DNA of 64,000 nt from a virus, in IMG/VR virus record IMGVR_UViG_3300017917_003339, positions 1 to 64,000 of that record. One strand, written 5' to 3'. Each line of letters starts with the position of its first letter. Positions within the stretch are counted from its first letter, which is position 1. The notes below the pieces were generated by a model. The model was given only the letters and a program-made list of their open reading frames with translations. It had not been told where the DNA came from and searched no databases. Position numbers and translations under genes: made by a program. This document shows positions 3,821 to 64,000 of the stretch, in pieces.

Positions 3821-3915
3821 TGGCTAGGGCAGGGCTCGAACCTGCGACCTCTCTTTGCTTTTAACAATGTTATTACGTCTAATAACGAGCGCTCTACCAA
3901 CTGAGCTACCTAGCC
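3821..3915 (-). ncRNA. tRNA-like RNA with a branched, anticodon-less arm
   Basis: GGCTAGG/CCTAGCC acceptor, canonical D and T arms; anticodon arm replaced by two hairpins (GTTATTA-GACG-TAATAAC and TTG..CAA). Confidence 0.75.
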
Positions 3916-4153
3916 GTTTTCTAGTCTATTCCCAGTGTCAACCATGGCAGTAAAGTGTTCTAGACCACTTTTGTCAATTACCTATTGCTAGGGACTTAAC
4001 CGTTGGATTTCTTGCGGCCAATATTAGGGTCTTCACCTAAAAGAGACTCTTGTTCTCGGAAACCACTTGTGCTTCCATCGCCTTTTGCGACTCTTGACCT
4101 AATTGTGATGCAAATATACTAACTTTTTAATCTAAAGTCAAATTTTCACCAAA

Positions 4154-7046: not shown

Positions 7047-9026
7047 TTAAAGATTGATTAAAGATAAATTTATGTTCTTTTTTTCAATGTCTACACTAGA
7101 TACAATTACATGAACCATATCACCAAGTCTAATTTTGTGACCTGTGTTGTAACCCTTGATACAATGGTTATTCACATCAGCTTGATACGTATCCCCTTGT
7201 ACCTCAGACAACTTGATAAGTCCCTCACACTTGTTTTCAAGTATCTCAACAAAGATACCGTACTCAGTAACCGAACTCACGATTCCCTTGAATACTTTGC
7301 CAATGTTATCATTCATGTAAACACATTGCATGAATTTGATTGAATCTCTTTCAGCCTTTTGAGCCTTTTGTTCTCTGGCCGACAAGTGTTGACACTTGGT
7401 TTCAAGCTTCTCAATCTTTGGCAGCGTTGGTTTGTTTTCCAAATACAAACTAAGCAATCTGTGAACGATTACGTCTGGATAACGTCTGATTGGACTGGTA
7501 AAGTGGCTGTAGTCTTTGAATCCAAGACCGTAGTGACCAATGTTCTTTGTAGAATAGTTGGCTTTCTGCATGGTTCTTACAACCAAGTTGTTAATCATGT
7601 CTTCCTCAGCAGTTCCTCTTACATCAATCAATAACTGATTAAGAGACCTTGTGGTTTCCTCTGGTGTGTCTATGCGTATGTCATATCCAAACTGTGAAAT
7701 AAACTCTTTTAAAGAGGCTAATTTTACTTCGTTTGGTTTGTCATGGGCTCTGTTTACGTTAGGCAACCCTCGGCTGTTTATGTATTGGGCAACGTGTCTG
7801 TTTGCCAACAACATAAATTCCTCAATCAACTTGTTTGAGTCTTTGGCAACCTTGAAGTGAATACCAATTGGCTTGTTGTTTTCATCCAACTTGAACTTAA
7901 CCTCTTGCTTGTCAAAGGAAATTGAACCTCTCTTTGAACGAGTCTTACGCATTCTCTGAGCTATCTTATTTAACAGTCTAACAGCATCAAACATTTTCTT
8001 TACTTCCGTAGCATATCTCATACTACTATCAATATTCATGTTTTTTATAAATTCAAAATCAGATATGTCAGTTTCCCATTTACCTTCCGATTCAATAATT
8101 GTTTGCGCTTCTTCGTATGTAAGTCTACAATCAGAGTTTATTACAGTTCTACCGAACCATTCTTCCAACACATGACCGTTTTGGTCAATCTTAAACACCG
8201 CTGAGAAACACAACTTGTCCTCGTTAGGTCTAAGACTACACAATCCATTAGACAAGTTCTCAGGAAGCATTGGAACACATCTGTCAACTAGATACACACT
8301 GGTACCTCTGGCAAACGCTTCTTTATCCAACTGTGTATCTGGTCGCAAGTAATGTGATACGTCAGCAATGTGAACACCAACATACAATTCACCGTCAACC
8401 CATTCAACACTCAACGCGTCATCAAAGTCTTTAGCATCCGCTGGGTCAATGGTAAACGTCAATACGTTACGCATATCTCTGCGCTTGTCAATCTCAGCTT
8501 GTGTGATTTCTGTTGGGATTGCTCTAGCCTCAGCCAATACTTCTTCATCAAAGTCGTATGGCAACCCATATTCTTCAAGAATACTGTGGATTTCAGTTTC
8601 GTGTTCACCAGCTTCACCCAACACCTTAACAACTTCACCGTTAGGGTTCTTGGCATCATCTTTCCATTCAGTAAGTCTAACCACAACCTTTTGCCCATCC
8701 TCAGCGTTATTAATCGCGTTTAATGGAATATAAAAGTCAACTGGTAGTTTGTTACTATCAGGGATAAAAAATGCGAATTTGGGACTTATTTGAAGCGTAC
8801 CCACAAACTCTGTTCTGAATCGTTCAACGATTTCAATTACTTCACCTTCCATTGCACGACCAACACCTTCTTTCACACGGATTTTAACTTTATCCAAGTG
8901 CAATGCTTTGTTGGTGTTAGACTTGTGAATGTAGATGTCTTTTGGTAGGTTTGGGTCAGTCAAGTATGCTGAACCACTGGCGTTTACACTAATTCTTCCT
9001 TCTAAAATATCTCCTATGTTAATCAT
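7047..9026 (-). CDS. rnr: Ribonuclease R (RNB family)
   Basis: TIDPADAKDFDDALS, HIADVSHY, IEEFMLLAN, HFTSPIRRYPD, C-terminal S1 domain. Confidence 0.95.
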   Translation of the reverse strand: MINIGDILEGRISVNASGSAYLTDPNLPKDIYIHKSNTNKALHLDKVKIRVKEGVGRAMEGEVIEIVERFRTEFVGTLQISPKFAFFIPDSNKLPVDFYIPLNAINNAEDGQKVVVRLTEWKDDAKNPNGEVVKVLGEAGEHETEIHSILEEYGLPYDFDEEVLAEARAIPTEITQAEIDKRRDMRNVLTFTIDPADAKDFDDALSVEWVDGELYVGVHIADVSHYLRPDTQLDKEAFARGTSVYLVDRCVPMLPENLSNGLCSLRPNEDKLCFSAVFKIDQNGHVLEEWFGRTVINSDCRLTYEEAQTIIESEGKWETDISDFEFIKNMNIDSSMRYATEVKKMFDAVRLLNKIAQRMRKTRSKRGSISFDKQEVKFKLDENNKPIGIHFKVAKDSNKLIEEFMLLANRHVAQYINSRGLPNVNRAHDKPNEVKLASLKEFISQFGYDIRIDTPEETTRSLNQLLIDVRGTAEEDMINNLVVRTMQKANYSTKNIGHYGLGFKDYSHFTSPIRRYPDVIVHRLLSLYLENKPTLPKIEKLETKCQHLSAREQKAQKAERDSIKFMQCVYMNDNIGKVFKGIVSSVTEYGIFVEILENKCEGLIKLSEVQGDTYQADVNNHCIKGYNTGHKIRLGDMVHVIVSSVDIEKKNINLSLINL

Positions 9027-27150: not shown

Positions 27151-28713
27151 TTAAACTAATTTGGCACGTTCTCTAACCTCTTCAAAGGTCCATTCTTGGG
27201 TTAGTTTACCCATGTTAAACACTTCTACTAATTCGTCTTTTACAGTCTCAAAATCAGGTTCAGCTGATGTTACAGTTCTGTATGTACCATCATCGTTTTT
27301 AACCAATTTCAATCGACCTTTTTTAGACTTCTTGAATGAGCGAGTAATATTACCGTCAGCATCCATTTCAGTTGGTGATTTAACCACGTCGACCTCTTTA
27401 CCATCCAACACAGCAAAGCATGCTTTGGTTGCGAAGTTTTGAGTATCACGGTCAATACCAGCTTGTAGCAATTTACCACCCATACCCAACGCTAAGTTCT
27501 CTGGAGAAATCTTTTCTTCTTCAAGCAACGCGTAGATTTCTTTGATAGATTCCAAGTTGATACCATCACCTTGAATCACACGTACTTGTGGTGGCAATAC
27601 TTTGTAACCTTTATCGTTTACAGTGTAACCGAATTTGTCAAAAAGAATACGGAAAATCTCTCTAAGTGAGTTGATTACGTGTCCAGAATCAGGACGGATA
27701 ACGAGTTGGTTGCCAGGCTCGGCAGGTCTAGAAAGGATAAGGTCTTTCAATTCACCACCCCAATAATCAGAACATGCTCTAAAGATGTTAAATGAGTCAG
27801 AAACACAAGCCACAAGCCCAGTTGGGAACAATGTCAATACGCGTTTCATCATTTCAATTTCACCATCTTCACCTCTAAGTGTCATGATTGAGTGTTCAGT
27901 TGCAGGGATTGACAAACCATAAACGGTGTCAGTGTTGTAGTTTTCTACAATGTACTTAGAGCCCATTAGCGTGTCTGAACCTCTAAAGTTTACAAGGTGA
28001 GCAGAACCACCAATACCCGCTGATTCAACAGAAGATACACCTCTGAAACCGAAGTCATTCAATACGAAATCTACAAGGAAACTTCTAAGAGCATCATCGT
28101 AAGATGTGCAGTTTTTGAACGCTTCGTCAACAATTTTACGAACTTCTCTTGAAAGAGTAGCTACAGTGATAGGATACCACACTTGTAAAAGGATTGTTTC
28201 TAAGAAGTTAGTTAACCAAGCACACTCTGGGTCAAGGCTTTCGATAATCATAAGTACGTTGTGTGTACCTACTACAGTCCCCTCAGGAACAGCTTTGATG
28301 CTTACTGGCAAACGACCATCGTATTTGTCAACGATGTAGTCAAATTTACGTCTGTCAAATACATCGTCACGACCAAACACACCATGTTTGGTTCCAAGAT
28401 AATCATACGCTTCATCAATTTCCTCACGTGTGATAGCTAAACCCTCTAGGTATCGTTTCATGATGATTTGAAGACCGTAGAATACAGTTTCTGAGAATTT
28501 ACCACCTCTTGATTCCAAATAGGAAACCATTTTGGTCATTTCAGTACCGTAAAACTCATGATGCGAATACTTGTAAGCATCAGAACAAAGAATTAAATTC
28601 TCTGGTTTTTCTAGGATTTTAGCAATTGGTTTTGCTAAGGATTCAACCAACGCCATGTCGTTGATTTCAATCGCTTCCCTAAGTCGCTCAATAAGATATT
28701 TTTTTAGTCTCAT
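27151..28713 (-). CDS. nadV: Nicotinamide phosphoribosyltransferase (Nampt/NadV)
   Basis: DAYKYSH, DFGFRG, GSDT, SIPATEHS, VIRPDSG, IQGDG. Confidence 0.92.
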   Translation of the reverse strand: MRLKKYLIERLREAIEINDMALVESLAKPIAKILEKPENLILCSDAYKYSHHEFYGTEMTKMVSYLESRGGKFSETVFYGLQIIMKRYLEGLAITREEIDEAYDYLGTKHGVFGRDDVFDRRKFDYIVDKYDGRLPVSIKAVPEGTVVGTHNVLMIIESLDPECAWLTNFLETILLQVWYPITVATLSREVRKIVDEAFKNCTSYDDALRSFLVDFVLNDFGFRGVSSVESAGIGGSAHLVNFRGSDTLMGSKYIVENYNTDTVYGLSIPATEHSIMTLRGEDGEIEMMKRVLTLFPTGLVACVSDSFNIFRACSDYWGGELKDLILSRPAEPGNQLVIRPDSGHVINSLREIFRILFDKFGYTVNDKGYKVLPPQVRVIQGDGINLESIKEIYALLEEEKISPENLALGMGGKLLQAGIDRDTQNFATKACFAVLDGKEVDVVKSPTEMDADGNITRSFKKSKKGRLKLVKNDDGTYRTVTSAEPDFETVKDELVEVFNMGKLTQEWTFEEVRERAKLV

Positions 28714-40797: not shown

Positions 40798-40798
40798 G

Positions 40799-40870
40799 AG
40801 CGACTAACCAGAATCGAACTGGCATCCTCGACTTGGCAAGCCGATGCACTAACCGTTGTGCTATAGTCGC
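40799..40870 (-). tRNA. tRNA-Gly(GCC)
   Basis: Cloverleaf; TCGGC-TTGCCAA-GTCGA; U73. Confidence 0.9.
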
Positions 40871-40871
40871 G

Positions 40872-41276
40872 TTATTTTTTTTCTTGTCTCTTTACCCTAC
40901 GTAATTCTCTACCATTACCTTTATTCAGCGCACCAAATGTTGGTGTTAGAGAATGACAATTAGGGCAAAGTAACTTTAAATTATCCAAAGAATTATTATC
41001 AGAATTCCCATCAATATGTTCTAATTGTATTGGAACGTTATTGGTGATTGGGTTTCTTTCATTCCAACCACATTCCATACATTTTTCACCATATTTGAAA
41101 ATTAAATAATTTCGATAATTATTGATATAAAGAGTGGTATCACCTTTTTCAATATTTTCAAATATTAATTTTCTTTTATGTTCACCTTGGCAGTTATTAT
41201 TACAGTATACATTCCTATTAGGGATTTTACCACCGCAATTTAAACATTCTTTTTCTAATTTTTCTCTTTCTCTCAC
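40872..41276 (-). CDS. HNH homing endonuclease (probable GTG start)
   Basis: CMECGW...LEHIDGNSDNNSLDNLKLLCPNCH. Confidence 0.88.
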   Translation of the reverse strand: MREREKLEKECLNCGGKIPNRNVYCNNNCQGEHKRKLIFENIEKGDTTLYINNYRNYLIFKYGEKCMECGWNERNPITNNVPIQLEHIDGNSDNNSLDNLKLLCPNCHSLTPTFGALNKGNGRELRRVKRQEKK

Positions 41277-41333
41277 GGACAACCTTATTTTATTATAAAT
41301 ATCGGTCGTCCGTGAAAAAGTTAAAAAAAATTT

Positions 41334-41361
41334 GGCGCTCAACCAGCCGAGCTCCATCCGC
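41334..41361 (-). pseudogene. 5' half of disrupted tRNA (GCGGATG acceptor plus D arm)
   Basis: GCGGATG-GA-GCTC-GGCTGGTT-GAGC; pairs with CATCCGC at 40767-40773. Confidence 0.75.
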
Positions 41362-43955: not shown

Positions 43956-44031
43956 TCGGGATGACTGGACTCGAACCAGCATGATGTCCTGCTCCCAAAG
44001 CAGGCGACTTAACCAATTAGTCCACATCCCG
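43956..44031 (-). tRNA. tRNA-Pro(TGG)
   Basis: CCTGC-TTTGGGA-GCAGG; C1-G72, A73. Confidence 0.9.
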
Positions 44032-44568
44032 TTTAAATTTTTCTACATATTCTAAAACCGTTTCTTCTATTAAATTTCTATACCTACTATGCCAATAAGC
44101 ATGATGTGTTGCACATAGAGGTATTAAATTCTCAGGTTTATTATTGTTTCTATCCCCATCTAAATGGTGAACATCTAACAATAATTTTTCATCACAAACA
44201 ACACATTTATGTTCGTGGTGTAAGAAACATGTTGACCTGTATGCATGTTCTTTCCAGTTTGGGTTTTTATCACCACTTCTAAAGAAAGAGTTTGCACAAG
44301 CATGAGAACATGTAATTTTTTCTCTTTTTGAACCTGATTGAGTTTCAAATTCATTCTCACAAACAGGACAAATTTTAATTATTCGTTCATATTTGAGAAA
44401 ATGTTTTTTCTTTCTATTAGGTTCAAATTTTAAACCATTTATTTCAAATAACGCATCTAACTTTTTATACCCAGCACCATTATTGCTGATATTTAACCTT
44501 TTACAAGCTTCATTTTTAGAACTACATTCTAGTATAATTTTTTCTAATTCTTCTTTTTCGATATTCAT
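44017..44568 (-). CDS. HNH homing endonuclease
   Basis: CPVC, CSHAC, CVVC..DVHHLDGDRNNNKPENLIPLCATHH; stop lies inside tRNA-Pro. Confidence 0.88.
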   Translation of the reverse strand: MNIEKEELEKIILECSSKNEACKRLNISNNGAGYKKLDALFEINGLKFEPNRKKKHFLKYERIIKICPVCENEFETQSGSKREKITCSHACANSFFRSGDKNPNWKEHAYRSTCFLHHEHKCVVCDEKLLLDVHHLDGDRNNNKPENLIPLCATHHAYWHSRYRNLIEETVLEYVEKFKRDVD

Positions 44569-45210: not shown

Positions 45211-45246
45211 AAAAAAACCCAGTTTAGATTTTACTCTGAACTGGGT
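45211..45246 (-). terminator. Attenuator terminator A
   Basis: ACCCAGTTCAGA-GTAAAA-TCTAAACTGGGT-TTTTTT just 5' of first tRNA. Confidence 0.88.
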
Positions 45247-45271
45247 CTATAATTTGTACTTGCGTACTTTA

Positions 45272-45373
45272 TTATATTGTTGTCAAGTCTGAAAACATGA
45301 CATACCCAGTCGACCTGAACGGTTTCCCGCCCTTAGGTTGATATTGCGTTTGATATGTTTTAGTTGTTTTCAT
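45272..45373 (-). CDS. Leader peptide A (33 aa) MKTTKTYQTQYQPKGGKPFRSTGYVMFSDLTTI
   Basis: Manual translation; codons 2-18 encode only K,T,Y,Q,P,G; contains antiterminator GACTGGGT. Confidence 0.85.
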   Translation of the reverse strand: MKTTKTYQTQYQPKGGKPFRSTGYVMFSDLTTI

Positions 45374-45390
45374 AACTTTGTTTTTTGTTT

Positions 45391-45481
45391 TGTTTATAAA
45401 TATGTTGTTTTTTAAAAAAATTCTGTTTTTGTTTATTAATTTTTACAATGCAAAGATACTAACTATTATAATACAAGTCAA
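45391..45481 (-). promoter_or_regulatory. Dual promoter of leader A: host-type TTGAC..TATCTTTG and phage ACATATTTATAAAC motif
   Basis: TATCTTTG at 45451-45458, TATTTATA at 45395-45402; homologous to 61925-62015. Confidence 0.7.
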
Positions 45482-45515
45482 GTTTTTTTGTAAAAAAATT
45501 TAAAATATTTTATAA

Positions 45516-53802: not shown

Positions 53803-54030
53803 TTGAATGGATAAACATTTCCAAGTGTTTACCCTAGCAGTTTTTACGCACTAGCACGGCTAAAAAACTACAAAAAACCTACTCGATGTTTTATGCTTGG
53901 ACAAGGGGCTGCACGAGCAACAACCCAGTTGTTCTGGTACAACTTTAAACCCCAAACTTGAGTCGTTGGCACTGAGTCAATAGTTCCGACACAAAGATTC
54001 CTAGGTTTTTGTGTGTTTCCTATTTAGTCG

Positions 54031-54107
54031 TGGGGGAAGCTGGACTCGAACCAGCGACCTTTCGCTCTCCTAAGACAGCGAACATCTGCCAACTGAAATA
54101 TTCCCCC
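54031..54107 (-). ncRNA. tRNA-like RNA with enlarged anticodon arm
   Basis: GGGGGAA/TTCCCCC; TTCGCT-GTCTTAGGAG-AGCGAA. Confidence 0.65.
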
Positions 54108-54336
54108 GATTGCCTCGGTTAAAAACCGAGGGCTTGTTCCGTGACGCTACCGCCCCAGAGATTTACGTCTTTGTGTTTGATACCACCGCCAGTACAAAGT
54201 TTCATTATCACAAAGATAAGAGGAGGAACTTTCCTATTGGCTACTACTCTCAAACACCCTACGATGTCTAATTAAAATTACAATGCAAATATACTAAGTG
54301 TTTTTCAATCTTGCAAGTTTTTTAAAAGTTTTTTTT

Positions 54337-58317: not shown

Positions 58318-58842
58318 CTAAACAGACATCCTTTTAACCATCTTTCTGTATATTCTATCTTCAAAATCTTTCATCAAAGAATCTGGGATTCTAATTCCTT
58401 TAGATTCGAATTCACCTATAATCTCACGTTTAAGAAATGTACCCTCAACAATTCCATCACCCCATTGGTCACACCAAAGTCCCCAGCTTTTCTTACCAAC
58501 AATCACAGCCTTGACTATGTTTGGGTGTCTGGTTACTATGGGTTTTCCACCAGAGTATTGTCCGTTATCGAATTTTCTAAATGTGTTTTTACCTTCGGAT
58601 TCATTGACATCAAATTCAACATTGACGATAGAACCGCAAAAGGTAAGAATACCTTTCCTATAAGAAGATAGAAAGAAATTGAAGATTTCATTGAAGTTGT
58701 CGGAATACTTTGATAACTTTCTATCAAGTCTGTTACCAGTTTCCTTTTTGCGTAATTCAATACGCTCTTGTTTTGTTAGGCTCCCAAGCGGTCGCCTCCT
58801 GATTGTGTTGTTTTCATATTCTTGTGTTTTTTGTTTAACCAA
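58318..58842 (-). CDS. Hypothetical protein
   Basis: ORF on coding strand. Confidence 0.5.
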   Translation of the reverse strand: MVKQKTQEYENNTIRRRPLGSLTKQERIELRKKETGNRLDRKLSKYSDNFNEIFNFFLSSYRKGILTFCGSIVNVEFDVNESEGKNTFRKFDNGQYSGGKPIVTRHPNIVKAVIVGKKSWGLWCDQWGDGIVEGTFLKREIIGEFESKGIRIPDSLMKDFEDRIYRKMVKRMSV

Positions 58843-59579
58843 TTTAATTTATTCAAGTCAATACTTGAATTAGATTTTACAATATGACCATCTGGAAAAT
58901 GTTTTATCATATCAGACATACTCAATACTGGAAAATCTTTGTCAAAGTTTGCGTTTGGATGTGACCAACCAAATTTAAACAACCAATTCAACAACGCATC
59001 AACATCATAGTCATTATAATCATCCGTAGTACAGTTACCAGTTCTTTTAGATAACTTACTACCCTTATAAAACAATAAACCAGCATGTTGAACATTTGGA
59101 AATTGTTTTTGACCATATACGTTGCAAATCATATCCCACAACTTTTGTTGTTTTGGTAAATTTGTAATGTGGTCCACACCTCTGATTATGTCTGTAATGT
59201 CATAATCATAGTCATCTAATATCGAAGCAAAATTATAGGTTGGATAACCGTTATCTCTAAGGATAACCATATCGTAATCTCCCATGTTTACGTTTAACGT
59301 ACCATCGTCTTTTTTAAACCCTATAGCTGTTGCCACTTGTTTGTATCGGTCAAGTCTGCTACTTTGCTTAAATGTTACATCATAATTTAACCCAAAGTAA
59401 TTCATTTGTTGATATATGAAATCTACATCTGAATCATTGTTCCTAGACAAATCTGTGTCATCGATTCTAAGGATAAAATTACCATCATTTGATTTACTCA
59501 ATAAATAATTGAATAAAGCAGTACGTAATGTCCCTAAATGAAATTTGCCCGTTGGTGAAGGGGCAATTCTTGTTTTCAT
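58776..59579 (-). CDS. Truncated glutamyl-tRNA synthetase-like protein (GluQ/YadB-like catalytic domain)
   Basis: TRIAPSPTG.FHLGTLRTA, LRIDDTD, PTYNFA, IRGVDH, KLSKR; no anticodon-binding domain. Confidence 0.85.
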   Translation of the reverse strand: MKTRIAPSPTGKFHLGTLRTALFNYLLSKSNDGNFILRIDDTDLSRNNDSDVDFIYQQMNYFGLNYDVTFKQSSRLDRYKQVATAIGFKKDDGTLNVNMGDYDMVILRDNGYPTYNFASILDDYDYDITDIIRGVDHITNLPKQQKLWDMICNVYGQKQFPNVQHAGLLFYKGSKLSKRTGNCTTDDYNDYDVDALLNWLFKFGWSHPNANFDKDFPVLSMSDMIKHFPDGHIVKSNSSIDLNKLNWLNKKHKNMKTTQSGGDRLGA

Positions 59580-59600
59580 AATACTATTTTTTATATTTTG

Positions 59601-59673
59601 TGGAGCTGACGGGAGTTGAACCCGCATCCTCTACCTTGCAAAGGTAGCGCTCAGCCAGTTGAGCTACAGCCCC
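59601..59673 (-). tRNA. tRNA-Ala(TGC)
   Basis: G3.U70; CTACC-TTTGCAA-GGTAG. Confidence 0.9.
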
Positions 59674-60524: not shown

Positions 60525-61163
60525 TTATTTTCTCCCTTTTAACCAACCTTCGTTTAAATAAGTTTCAAGGTCTTCTTTTTTAATTTTTTTGTTAGTACCA
60601 TCCTTGGTTATCCAACATGTACCATATTGACTGTTTGTTTCACCAGTCCCAGTACCTTTTCTTTTTTCTGATATTAATTGTTTAGTTTCTTCCGAATGAC
60701 ATTTACCTTCAAAAGTATTATAATTAATTTTACCTAATTTATGTGCTTTTTTTAATGTTTCAGATGATATTTCTGTATGTTTTTTAAAAAACTCTTCATC
60801 AATTTTTAATTTGTCAGAAAACGCTTTTCCACCAGCCTTAATACATTTCTCCATATGTTCTTTATTAGCAAAACCACCTTGACCACCTTCTTTTAAATTC
60901 ATACATAAACCATCAGATATCAACTCTTTTGTTATAATTTCAATCTCTCTAAGAACTAATTTTTCTCTTGTTGGTAAAAATTCTAATATTTCTTTTGTAT
61001 GGTTTTCAACACCATATTTCCTAATACTATATCTTAATATCTTACCACTTCCCATGTAACCGTCATCTAATTTCGTAGTTGAATGCATTCCAATATACCA
61101 TCTTCCTGTTACATTACATGTTGTTTTATATATGTAATGTATATTTGCTTTTTTTCTTGCCAT
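60525..61163 (-). CDS. GIY-YIG (Seg-like) homing endonuclease with NUMOD3-like region
   Basis: YIYKTT..TGRWYIG.H..YMGSG...NLKEGG; HSEETKQLISEK. Confidence 0.88.
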   Translation of the reverse strand: MARKKANIHYIYKTTCNVTGRWYIGMHSTTKLDDGYMGSGKILRYSIRKYGVENHTKEILEFLPTREKLVLREIEIITKELISDGLCMNLKEGGQGGFANKEHMEKCIKAGGKAFSDKLKIDEEFFKKHTEISSETLKKAHKLGKINYNTFEGKCHSEETKQLISEKRKGTGTGETNSQYGTCWITKDGTNKKIKKEDLETYLNEGWLKGRK

Positions 61164-61220
61164 TTCAGTTTATCTTTAATAATAAATATCAAGATAAACT
61201 GAAAAGTACAAAAAAGTTTA

Positions 61221-61299
61221 TGGTAGCCTCGACGGGGCTCGAACCCGCATTGCACACCTTGAAAGGATGGCTTCCTAGTCCGATTTAGAAGACAAGGCC
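61221..61299 (-). tRNA. tRNA-Glu(TTC)
   Basis: loop CTTTCAA; imperfect anticodon stem; CCA encoded. Confidence 0.78.
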
Positions 61300-61356
61300 A
61301 TGTTTATCGTTTCGGTTACCCCCACGCAGTGCACTTACGCAGGGACCTACTCCTTG

Positions 61357-61520
61357 TAGGAATGAGTGGATTCGAACCACTGACCTTCTCCCTTATGATG
61401 GGAGTCGTTCTGAATGTGTTTTTTCAACCAACTTAATGGTAATTCATTAAGCACACACCCCGATTGTTGTTATTTACCATCTCCTTAAGGAGCCAATCAG
61501 ACCGCTGAACGTACATTCCT
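61357..61520 (-). ncRNA. tRNA(CAT), Ile2/Met, with ~90-nt structured insertion in the D loop
   Basis: AGGAATG/CATTCCT; GTTC..GAAC D stem split by insert; CTCCC-ATCATAA-GGGAG. Confidence 0.75.
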
Positions 61521-61522
61521 AG

Positions 61523-61595
61523 TGGTACCTCCCAGATTCGAACTGGGGACACCTGCATCTTCAGTGCAGTGCTCTACCAACTGAGCTAAGGTACC
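61523..61595 (-). tRNA. tRNA-Phe(GAA)
   Basis: CTGCA-CTGAAGA-TGCAG. Confidence 0.92.
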
Positions 61596-61605
61596 TTTTA
61601 ATTTC

Positions 61606-61640
61606 GTTGCAAAGATACAACTTATTTTTTAATCTCCAAA
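61606..61640 (-). promoter_or_regulatory. Internal host-type promoter (TTTG..TATCTTTG)
   Basis: TTTGGAGATTAAAAAATAAGTTGTATCTTTGCAAC. Confidence 0.55.
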
Positions 61641-61674
61641 TTTTCAATGAACTTTTTTTATTTTTTTTTTCTTG

Positions 61675-61745
61675 TGGAATCAACGGGAGTCGACCCCGTG
61701 TCTCTGGCTCTTCAGGCCAGCGCTAAACCCCTCAGCTATGACTCC
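61675..61745 (-). tRNA. tRNA-Phe(GAA), variant T loop
   Basis: CTGGC-CTGAAGA-GCCAG; T loop GTCGACT. Confidence 0.8.
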
Positions 61746-61758
61746 AATTTTTGTACAT

Positions 61759-61789
61759 AAAAAAAGCCTGACTTATTAGGGTCAGGCTT
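61759..61789 (-). terminator. Attenuator terminator B
   Basis: AAGCCTGAC-CCTAATAA-GTCAGGCTT-TTTTT just 5' of first tRNA-Phe. Confidence 0.88.
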
Positions 61790-61817
61790 GTTACTATGGT
61801 TGAGTTATTTCTAACTG

Positions 61818-61907
61818 TTAACTATTGGCAACACACGACCCTCCAGAAGAGCAATCCTCCTCGGCAGCAAAAAATGCAAAATCAAATATGTTAGCAAAAG
61901 TTCTCAT
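61818..61907 (-). CDS. Leader peptide B (29 aa) MRTFANIFDFAFFAAEEDCSSGGSCVANS
   Basis: Manual translation; codons 4-18 almost only F,A,D,E,I; contains antiterminator AGGGTCG. Confidence 0.85.
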   Translation of the reverse strand: MRTFANIFDFAFFAAEEDCSSGGSCVANS

Positions 61908-61924
61908 AGTAATATTTTTATGTT

Positions 61925-62015
61925 TGTTTATAAATATGTTCTTTTTTTAAAAAGTTTATTTTTTGTTTGTTTTTAAATTCTTTGCAAATATACGAACTAT
62001 TTTAATACTAGTCAA
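61925..62015 (-). promoter_or_regulatory. Dual promoter of leader B
   Basis: TTGAC at 62011-62015, TATATTTG at 61985-61992, ACATATTTATAAAC near 61926-61939. Confidence 0.7.
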
Positions 62016-62042
62016 GTTTTTTTGCAACTTTTTTAAATTATT

Positions 62043-62630
62043 TTATAATTCGTTGTTTCTCAATTGATTAAGATAAGCTTCCATTTCATCTTTTTCATCG
62101 TATTTGAATGTTTTTAACACTCTCACGCTTTTGGTTGAAATTGATTTACCACCAGCTGCTCCTTTCCTAACATATATTCTATCAGAATCTAACTGATGTG
62201 CTGGTACAGCTTGATAGTAATATTTAGGGTCTAAATATGCCATTGGTATTATGATTTCAATAACTGCATAATCTGGACCTTCAAATTCTTCTGTCATGTT
62301 GAATAAATCATCGTGGTGTTTATGTTTGAATTTAACACCTAAGTCAGTCATCATAGAAGGAACGTATTTTGCATCTGGATGTTGTTGTTTAATATACTGC
62401 ATCATCTTAGAACCAATTCCTAACCTTCTATATTTTGGTAAGACTATAATATTACCAACAGTCAATTCACCATCGTATATTGTGTATTGTACCATTCCAA
62501 GAATGTCATCATTCAAATACACACCCAACTCATAATCATCTTGACCATGGTGATAACCCATGTGTTCTGTTCTATAATCTAACTCGCCAGTGAGCCCTTC
62601 TCTTAACAATTTTTTTATTAGTGCTTTCAT
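62043..62630 (-). CDS. GNAT-domain late protein
   Basis: MKALIKKLLREG; PKYRRLGIGSKMM. Confidence 0.7.
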   Translation of the reverse strand: MKALIKKLLREGLTGELDYRTEHMGYHHGQDDYELGVYLNDDILGMVQYTIYDGELTVGNIIVLPKYRRLGIGSKMMQYIKQQHPDAKYVPSMMTDLGVKFKHKHHDDLFNMTEEFEGPDYAVIEIIIPMAYLDPKYYYQAVPAHQLDSDRIYVRKGAAGGKSISTKSVRVLKTFKYDEKDEMEAYLNQLRNNEL

Positions 62631-62659
62631 ACTAATAAATATGTCAAAGAATTGATTTG

Positions 62660-62742
62660 TACCGCTGACTGGACTCGAACCAGCACACCCTTTCGGGCAC
62701 CAGATTCTTAGTCTGGCGTGTCTACCATTCCACCACAGCGGC
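62660..62742 (-). tRNA. tRNA-Leu(AAG)
   Basis: CCAGA-CTAAGAA-TCTGG; long variable arm. Confidence 0.88.
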
Positions 62743-62747
62743 AGGTA

Positions 62748-62836
62748 CAAGATAGTTAATTTTGTGGATTTGAACCACTTCGTTCGCATTTTAAGTGTGA
62801 ATTTTTAACCAATTTTGTTTGCTGAAACTATCTTTT
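62748..62836 (-). ncRNA. Helix+CAGCAA RNA with Leu(TAA) anticodon hairpin and T arm but no acceptor stem
   Basis: AAGATAGTT-TCAGCAA..TTCACA-CTTAAAA-TGCGAA..GTGG-TTCAAAT-CCAC..AACTATCTT-G. Confidence 0.72.
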
Positions 62837-62837
62837 G

Positions 62838-62912
62838 TAGGTCTGGAGGGATTCGAACCCCCGACTTTTTCCTTGTAAGAGAAACACTCTGAACCAACTG
62901 AGTTACAGACCC
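62838..62912 (-). tRNA. tRNA-Val(TAC)
   Basis: TTTCT-CTTACAA-GGAAA. Confidence 0.9.
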
Positions 62913-62921
62913 ATTATATTG

Positions 62922-63004
62922 TACCGCTGGCGAGACTCGAACTCGCACGCTTATTTCAGCACTGGTTTCTAAGACCAGCGGGTCTACCATTCCCCCACAG
63001 CGGC
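62922..63004 (-). tRNA. tRNA-Leu(TAG)
   Basis: CTGGT-CTTAGAA-ACCAG. Confidence 0.92.
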
Positions 63005-63014
63005 ATATATGATG

Positions 63015-63155
63015 TTAAGCTTCTTCTAGCTCAACATCTTCAATTTCTTTATCTTGTTCTAATTTTTTAGCACATGTAATGTGCATAAATTTTTTGTCTA
63101 CTACTAAAGCAGCACCGTGGATAACACCACCACATTCACAACAATTAAACTTCAT
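63015..63155 (-). CDS. Small Zn-binding protein (46 aa)
   Basis: MKFNCCECGG...MHITC. Confidence 0.55.
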   Translation of the reverse strand: MKFNCCECGGVIHGAALVVDKKFMHITCAKKLEQDKEIEDVELEEA

Positions 63156-63188
63156 ACTTCCATAATTTTAATTAACACGTTATTTTTG

Positions 63189-63272
63189 TAGCCAGAGTGG
63201 GAATCGAACCCACACGTCCTTGCGGACACCAGATTTTGAGTCTGGCGCGTCTACCAATTCCGCCATCTGGCC
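63189..63272 (-). tRNA. tRNA-Leu(CAA)
   Basis: CCAGA-CTCAAAA-TCTGG. Confidence 0.92.
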
Positions 63273-63277
63273 AGTTG

Positions 63278-63363
63278 TAGCCGAGGAGGGACTCGAACCC
63301 TCACGCCCATTACTGAGCACGGGATTTTAAGTCCCGCGTGTCTACCAATTCCACCACTCGGCC
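63278..63363 (-). tRNA. tRNA-Leu(TAA)
   Basis: CGGGA-CTTAAAA-TCCCG. Confidence 0.92.
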
Positions 63364-63464
63364 ATTTATGTGTTGTGAGAACTGTACCGTAGGCTATTCT
63401 CCGCATACCACATGGGTATTGTTCTATCGCCATAGCAGCCTCCATAAAGGACAACACATATTTT

Positions 63465-63542
63465 TGGTACACCCAACTGGATTCGAACCAGTGGCCTCTT
63501 GCGTGTAAAACAAGCGCTCTCAACCAACTGAGCTATGGGTGC
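63465..63542 (-). tRNA. tRNA-Val(TAC)
   Basis: CTTGT-TTTACAC-GCAAG; CCA encoded. Confidence 0.9.
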
Positions 63543-63554
63543 ATATGGTAGGGT

Positions 63555-63872
63555 TTAACCTACCTTGATAAAATCTTCATTATCGATGGCTCTTTCAATC
63601 CATCTGATTAATTCTGAACCCTTGATTTCTGCATCGAATGTGGTTGTACCCAAATCCTCAGCCAATACTAGTGTTGCAATTTTTTCTCTTTCAAAAGAAT
63701 CCATTACAAATGATTTTTGTACAGTTTTGATTGGAAACTGATAGGTTCCATCCAACACATCAACTTTATAATATAGGTTCCCACCTACATAGTGACTAAA
63801 TTTAGCCAGATTCTTTGACTTATACAAGTCTTTTTTAATTTCATTCTTTTCCATTGTTTCACTCTTTATCAT
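63555..63872 (-). CDS. Hypothetical phage protein
   Basis: ORF on coding strand within tRNA array. Confidence 0.6.
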   Translation of the reverse strand: MIKSETMEKNEIKKDLYKSKNLAKFSHYVGGNLYYKVDVLDGTYQFPIKTVQKSFVMDSFEREKIATLVLAEDLGTTTFDAEIKGSELIRWIERAIDNEDFIKVG

Positions 63873-63874
63873 TG

Positions 63875-63945
63875 AGGCGCCGACTGGATTCGAACCAGTG
63901 TACGGGGTTTTGCAGACCCCTGCCTAGCCACTCGGCCACGGCGCC
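63875..63945 (-). tRNA. tRNA-Cys(GCA)
   Basis: GGGGT-CTGCAAA-ACCCC; U73. Confidence 0.92.
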
Positions 63946-63958
63946 ATTGTTATAAAAT

Positions 63959-63989
63959 AAAAAACCCATCTGGTTAGGATGGGCTTTTT
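63959..63989 (-). terminator. Terminator immediately 5' of Cys/Val/Leu tRNA array (candidate attenuator C)
   Basis: GCCCATC-CTAACCA-GATGGGT-TTTTT about 13 nt before tRNA-Cys. Confidence 0.75.
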
Positions 63990-64000
63990 GAGAGATACTT

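Follow-up and report, generated by a model that had tools for sequence, protein, structure and literature searches.

The window considered here is the whole 64,000-nt stretch of DNA that was analysed, which covers positions 1-64000 of a viral contig 92,494 nt long; sequence past position 64000 was therefore read from the contig, in contig numbering. The contig has a G+C content of 35.8% and an estimated completeness of 26% (CheckV). ARAGORN identified 47 tRNA genes in the contig, 32 of them in the window, on the minus strand throughout. A megablast search of window positions 61000-64000 against GenBank phages gave no match.

At the end of the window lies array C (62659-63945, minus strand), a group of seven tRNA genes found by both ARAGORN and Rfam. 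All are on the minus strand and are transcribed in the order Cys(gca) (63874-63945), Val(tac) (63465-63542), Leu(taa) (63277-63363), Leu(caa) (63188-63272), Leu(tag) (62921-63004), a second Val(tac) (62837-62912) and Leu(aag) (62659-62742), which is exactly the composition of one Cys, two Val and four Leu genes given in the preliminary description. Two small ORFs of 105 aa (63555-63872) and 46 aa (63015-63155), also on the minus strand, occur among the tRNA genes, and neither matched Pfam. A GNAT-family acetyltransferase gene (window 62043-62789, minus strand) follows directly after the array, ahead of the promoter of leader B, and may be co-transcribed with the Cys/Val/Leu tRNAs.

The array is preceded by an intrinsic terminator (63989-63959, minus strand; L006 1989-1959) with 12 pairs, a 7-nt loop and a U-tract, its 5' arm at 63989-63978, its 3' arm and U-tract at 63970-63959, and a fold energy of about -14 kcal/mol. 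A consensus scanner called this terminator at the position where it had first been noticed. The first tRNA gene begins 13 nt past it, and the spacing of about 13 nt that had been proposed as common to arrays A, B and C is borne out by distances of 14 nt before array A (45196) and 13 nt before array B (61745).

The preliminary description had also predicted a short ORF of about 30 codons, rich in Cys, Val and Leu, past position 64000. Such an ORF, leader ORF C (64096-64013, minus strand), is present and has 27 codons; its 26 residues following Met include eight Leu, three Val and two Cys (13 in total), whereas the background frequency of these three amino acids is 0.16 (P = 5e-5). Codons 8-17 (64075-64046, minus strand) form a sensor block, LVLLGLCLLV. 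The Leu codons of the leader (TTA, TTG, CTT, CTA and CTG) cover the four Leu anticodons of the array, and the leader also draws on both codons for Cys and on three for Val. A spacer of about 23-24 nt (window part 63990-64000, minus strand) separates the ORF from the terminator. The antiterminator segment, forecast as resembling GATGGG, was found within codons 21-23 as UGGGCU (64035-64030, minus strand), part of CUGGGCU; it resembles the GAUGGG of the terminator 3' arm, pairs with AGCCCA (63985-63980) in the 5' arm, and covaries in 18 relatives.

Promoter C, TTGACT-17-TATCTTTGCA (64158-64126, minus strand, contig numbering), lies beyond the window edge and is followed by an A-rich leader of about 30 nt before the ORF. 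The expectation that array C would share the dual promoter of arrays A and B holds only in part: the same extended promoter precedes cassettes A, B, C and D, but it appears as a single promoter, which matches both the TTGACT-17-TATCTT reading and the Bacteroidota-type TAnnTTTG -7 box reading. The type of promoter found at the cassettes is the one that the phage uses generally. Immediately upstream of leader C, on the contig's minus strand, are genes for an RlaP-family "RNA repair pathway" nucleotidyltransferase (65519-66769) and an HD-domain phosphohydrolase (64997-65515). Their position by the tRNA region suggests, by analogy with rtcB beside the Anabaena array, an RNA-repair setting.

Four such cassettes (A-D), each with promoter, leader ORF, terminator and tRNA array, occur on the minus strand of the contig. 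Cassette A (45211-45490) has its -7 box at 45458, its leader ORF at 45373-45272 and its terminator at 45248-45211; codons 2-18 of the leader all encode K, T, Y, Q, P or G. Array A (45196-43134) contains Pro, Gln, three Lys, Pro, Gly, two Gln, two Tyr and two Thr genes, with a further Gly(gcc) gene at 40798-40870. Cassette B (61759-62024) has its -7 box at 61992, its leader ORF at 61907-61818, with the sensor FDFAFFAAEED, and its terminator at 61789-61759; array B (61745-59600) reads Phe, Phe, (tca), Glu, Asp, Asp, Ala, Ala. Cassette D lies outside the window, with its -7 box at 85295, its leader ORF at 85249-85148 and its terminator at 85125-85091 of the contig, and array D (84909-81872) consists of Ser, two His, Trp, Ser, two Ile, Met, three Asn, three Arg and Ser. 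It had been suggested that the isotypes of arrays A, B and C do not overlap, that the genome divides the genetic code among separately sensed arrays, and that arrays for R, S, H, N, W and M would be found elsewhere. The first three arrays share no isotype, the fourth (S, H, W, I, M, N and R; 81872-84909) has its own matched leader, and the four isotype sets cover the 20 amino acids with zero overlap.

Several further genes and signals are associated with the arrays. The UCA-anticodon tRNA of array B (window 61221-61299, minus strand), labelled "SeC" by ARAGORN, would read UGA; it has the same position in related contigs, is sampled by no leader codon, and could be a suppressor or recoding tRNA. 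Promoters of near-identical sequence (…AAAAAATAAGTTGTATCTTTGCAACG) occur on the minus strand inside arrays B (61617, just ahead of Phe at 61595) and D (contig 83576, just ahead of Ile at 83557), and thus the downstream tRNAs of each array may partly escape the attenuator. Directly after the last tRNA of array B, a gene on the minus strand (window 58776-59627) encodes a 283-aa protein with only the catalytic domain of a class-I Glu/Gln-tRNA synthetase (Pfam E = 2e-46); its size and make-up recall GluQ-RS-type enzymes acting on tRNA-Asp, and the gene is probably co-transcribed under attenuator B. Homing-endonuclease-type genes are located within the arrays on the minus strand (window 60525-61163, 44017-44568 and 40872-41357), of the GIY-YIG/NUMOD3 type in B and the HNH type in A, and a paralogue of the GIY-YIG gene appears to be present in array D. 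In cassette D, a 59-codon ORF (contig 84910-85090, minus strand), kept in the related locus L018, lies between the terminator and the first tRNA, so that attenuator D would control a small protein besides tRNAs.

Elsewhere in the window, ARAGORN reported an odd tRNA with a two-base anticodon (54030-54107, minus strand), preceded by about 180 nt of non-coding, structured-looking sequence (54108-54293) that starts at a phage promoter with its -7 box at 54293. The promoter at 4118 is similar; it is followed by about 200 nt of non-coding sequence and then by tRNA-Ser(aga) at 3915. Both non-coding stretches may represent further non-coding RNAs, or permuted or split tRNAs. The window also encodes, on the minus strand, an RNase II/R-type exoribonuclease with RNB, CSD2 and S1 domains (E = 4e-111) and a nicotinamide phosphoribosyltransferase (7047-9026 and 27151-28713, respectively).

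Each leader is specific for its own array. The fraction of leader residues 2-18 falling within the isotype set of the cognate array was 17/17 for leader A, 13/17 for B, 9/17 for C and 16/17 for D, against 0-4/17 for foreign arrays, and the true assignment of leaders to arrays in the contig ranked first of the 24 possible. Under strict wobble rules, the leader codons sample all the anticodon species encoded by array A, by array C and by array D, and four out of five in B. This sampling often relies on codons that are rare in the genome, including CGC (4% of its family), GGC (6%), TCG (6%), CTG (2%) and CCG (6%).

The same organization was found in related viruses. A scan for the shared promoter yielded 22 sites, spread over about 11 viral contigs (the largest of 362 kb), across which all four leader types occur with their cognate arrays and substitutions in the sensor blocks remain inside the cognate amino-acid set. 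With the RlaP-family nucleotidyltransferase encoded upstream of leader C as query, 80 loci were retrieved at 37-84% identity; these were scanned with a composition-blind detector, which required a terminator, a tRNA within 300 nt and then an ORF ending just upstream. The four leader types, with their cognate arrays, were present at many of the 80 loci, with C-type and B-type leaders widespread, and new types appeared in distant genomes. In all, dozens of contigs from related huge phages show the same arrangement, among them GenBank entries LR745206 and LR756502. Leader ORF, frame and sensor block are conserved among relatives, and the tails are variable. Prevotella phage Lak-A1 has tRNA clusters with no evident leaders. 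Tenacibaculum phage PTm1, the nearest cultured relative by its RlaP-like protein, was considered as a model and rejected, as it carries no tRNA genes.

Where relatives divide the code differently, the composition of the leader follows that of the array. A complete 482-kb genome has the code in at least six blocks, with every leader spelling its own block; examples are LSLSLS before a Leu/Ser array, NNNNQQQYQQNNY before an Asn/Gln/Tyr array, PQFQFVVPF before a Pro/Phe/Val array and ADCADE before an Asp/Cys/Glu/Ala array. Other related genomes have YYYEAYEE before a Glu/Tyr array, QQQQQQ before four Gln tRNAs and PQDQDQP before a Gln/Asp/Pro array, and SSSRSSS precedes an Arg/Ser array in a relative with a different code split. 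Genomes LR745206.1 and LR756502.1 (635 and 642 kb) contain seven leader-array pairs apiece. In a permutation analysis of 18 elements from five genomes, the observed match scored 55.1, whereas random pairings averaged 10.1 and never exceeded 34.8 (0/100,000 as high); all isotypes of the array were present in the leader in 16 of the 18 elements. A "longest ORF" rule selected wrong frames at L052, L054, L099 and L114, where the true leaders are in another frame or begin with GTG, and the permutation statistics were given under both ORF-choice rules.

Cassette C is best read as a ribosome-mediated (leader-peptide) transcription attenuator placed before a phage tRNA block, with a probability of about 0.8. 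We infer that the leader is translated, that stalling in it leads to read-through rather than to termination, and that the physiological trigger is shortage or damage of host tRNAs in infection. Transcription would start at about 64130 from promoter C, and a ribosome would translate the 27-codon leader, in which the block LVLLGLCLLV and the tail codons together sample every downstream anticodon. When a charged cognate tRNA is scarce, the ribosome would stall in the sensor block and leave CUGGGCU free to pair with the 5' arm of the terminator, which would then not form, and the polymerase would read into the Cys/Val/Leu tRNA genes. When the tRNAs are plentiful, the ribosome would advance and cover CUGGGCU, the hairpin would form, and transcription would stop 13 nt before tRNA-Cys. 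As scarcity of cognate tRNA would drive read-through, the products of the array would feed back on their own synthesis. Four cassettes splitting 20 amino acids would provide separate supply control for each tRNA block, and the phage probably turns on each block only when its codons are read slowly.

The same cassette might instead respond to a different signal, namely amino-acid supply or general elongation speed, with the arrays being switched on under any translational stress as in the trn operon of Anabaena. Leader-peptide attenuators inherently respond to charged tRNA, as established for trp, his and ilv, and general translation stress switches on the Anabaena tRNA array (PMC8421152). A point against the favoured reading is that amino-acid starvation would induce the phage arrays too, since attenuation senses charged tRNA, with no obvious benefit. 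For general stress sensing, however, one leader of any composition would suffice; there would be no need for four to seven separate leaders, or for their composition to follow the isotypes and isoacceptors of each array as far as the rare codons, which makes this alternative improbable.

The RNA switch itself was approached by folding and by covariation. When the complete leaders were folded at equilibrium with ribosome masks, the terminator prevailed in A and C almost wherever the ribosome was placed, and the folds were not discriminating; the attenuation model therefore depends on co-transcriptional kinetics. These folds were replaced by a model in which the transcript is cut before the 3' arm of the terminator and a modelled ribosome is moved along the leader. 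In all four leaders, a ribosome in the sensor codons left the 5' arm paired with the ORF segment, and a ribosome beyond them freed the 5' arm. In this computation, the antiterminator would exclude the terminator depending on the position of the ribosome in the leader. The ORF runs 5-10 codons past the antiterminator segment, which in the model could be re-exposed behind the ribosome (e.g., leader D codons 28-33).

In an alignment of 18 C-type leaders, the antiterminator was paired in 93.5% of cases, with compensatory changes in four of its six pairs; none of 500 shuffles scored as high, and slid controls gave 17-59%. The terminator was 91% paired in the same set, with compensatory changes in 7 of 12 pairs. 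Three-way changes, affecting antiterminator, 5' arm and 3' arm together, were observed at L045, L047 and L013/L024, which have very different terminator stems, each with a matching copy of the 3' arm in the ORF. In a duplex test of own against foreign arms, 32 of 61 leaders bound their own arm more strongly than they bound 90% of the foreign ones. The test fails for type-B leaders, whose antiterminator is weak; there the pairing partly uses loop nucleotides outside the arm definition employed. A 1:2 protector or pause helix, the element that in attenuators of this class brings about termination when the leader goes untranslated, was predicted for leader C, at 79% paired and with no covariation beyond shuffles; folds of A, B and D with no ribosome contained no protector helix, and the antiterminator formed even then.

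These results bear on the alternative that the leader is translated and codon-matched with no hairpin switch, regulation being exerted through Rho-type polarity, RNA processing or stability of the tRNA precursor. The preference of equilibrium folds for the terminator at any ribosome position would fit such a mechanism, as would the weakness of the type-B antiterminator and a protector helix that lacks covariation support. Against it, the antiterminator covaries with the terminator arms, three-way changes included, and the ORF segment of most leaders matches its own arm much more closely than it does foreign ones, so that this explanation appears quite unlikely. An inverse logic, in which stalling promotes termination and transcription of the tRNA genes is confined to times of efficient translation, is very unlikely: in 4/4 leaders the modelled ribosome frees the antiterminator when in the sensor block and masks it when beyond, which is the geometry of trp, his and ilv. 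Coincidence, with the terminator ending an unrelated short transcript or an upstream gene and the small ORF being non-functional, can draw on the frequency of short ORFs in AT-rich DNA and on the few loci where the "longest ORF" rule chose wrong frames, but it is effectively refuted by the permutation result (0/100,000), by the conservation of ORF, frame and sensor block despite variable tails, and by the finding that apparent exceptions do have true leaders, which are read in a different frame or start at GTG.

Attenuation by the leaders may also be placed in a wider frame, which is proposed tentatively and rates as somewhat less than an even chance. The leaders would constitute a codon-resolved tRNA homeostat, independent of the host, and at the same time a counter-defence sensor: loss of tRNAs to host anticodon nucleases, or to shut-off of the host by the phage, would switch on only the array that replaces them. 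The division of the code would be evolving, with four blocks here and seven in the 635-642-kb relatives, and the RlaP-family and HD-domain genes would take part in the same response.

The -7 box TAnnTTTG, the Tenacibaculum and Prevotella phage relatives and placement in the Mahaphage clade point to Bacteroidota hosts. Genomes of the 635-642-kb size class were assigned to the "Mahaphage" clade, with predicted Bacteroidetes hosts, in a study where attenuators or leaders go unmentioned (PMC7162821). The system apparently passed unremarked in the published genomes LR745206.1 and LR756502.1. It suggests that huge Bacteroidota phages gauge decoding speed codon by codon and make tRNA sets on demand. 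Why and when phages use their own tRNA genes is a long-standing question, to which the proposed answers include matching codon usage, making up for host tRNAs that have been degraded, and evading defences that cleave tRNA. The question becomes experimental here, in that the leader sequence states which tRNAs its array would back up. The system would also extend multivalent sensing to seven or eight amino acids in one leader, and it would provide compact, programmable sensors of tRNA shortage that could find use in synthetic biology.

No account of leader-peptide attenuation of tRNA genes was found in the literature searched, which covered few subscription journals; the nearest system is the trn operon of Anabaena sp. 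PCC 7120. This operon (L-array) is supernumerary, horizontally mobile, normally silent and induced by impaired translation, and it is controlled at its promoter, where the ribbon-helix-helix repressor TrcR binds direct repeats overlapping the -10 box (PMC8421152; PMC10272220). The terms "leader peptide", "attenuat" and "terminator" are absent from both papers. The L-array is a single array with no isotype matching, whereas the phage has several isotype-matched cassettes.

T-box riboswitches resemble the phage cassettes in using terminator/antiterminator control of translation-supply genes according to the state of a specific tRNA, but they bind the uncharged tRNA directly through a specifier codon, with neither ribosome nor ORF, and are typical of Firmicutes. 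A permissive cmscan search of Rfam, T-box included (E up to 1), of the sequences carrying leaders B, C and D (L002 and L007) returned only tRNAs and chance matches, none of them on the leaders.

The pheM leader of the E. coli pheST operon is a known leader-peptide attenuator that acts on the translation machinery, again with a match to the codons of the leader. That attenuator regulates an aminoacyl-tRNA synthetase for one amino acid, whereas the phage cassettes would regulate tRNA genes. Closest in design are the multivalent attenuators of enterobacteria, in which the ilvGMEDA leader senses Ile, Leu and Val and the thr leader Thr and Ile; trpL, hisL, leuL and pheL are further examples of the class. 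The phage cassettes share with the ilvGMEDA and thr types a short ORF rich in several amino acids, a terminator, and a mutually exclusive antiterminator overlapping the distal ORF, with ribosome position deciding between the two. Classical targets, amino-acid biosynthesis enzymes or synthetases, are not immediately downstream in the phage, where tRNA genes are found instead; the enterobacterial attenuators regulate biosynthetic enzymes, whereas here the sensed molecule would be the product of the regulated genes. The phage leaders differ further in covering up to seven or eight amino acids plus isoacceptors per sensor, in jointly spanning the whole code, and in occurring in a Bacteroidota phage. 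To our knowledge, this would be the first case of classical leader-peptide attenuation closing a direct feedback loop on tRNA genes. The mechanism is classical; new are the tRNA genes as its target, the closing of the feedback loop and the partition of the entire code.
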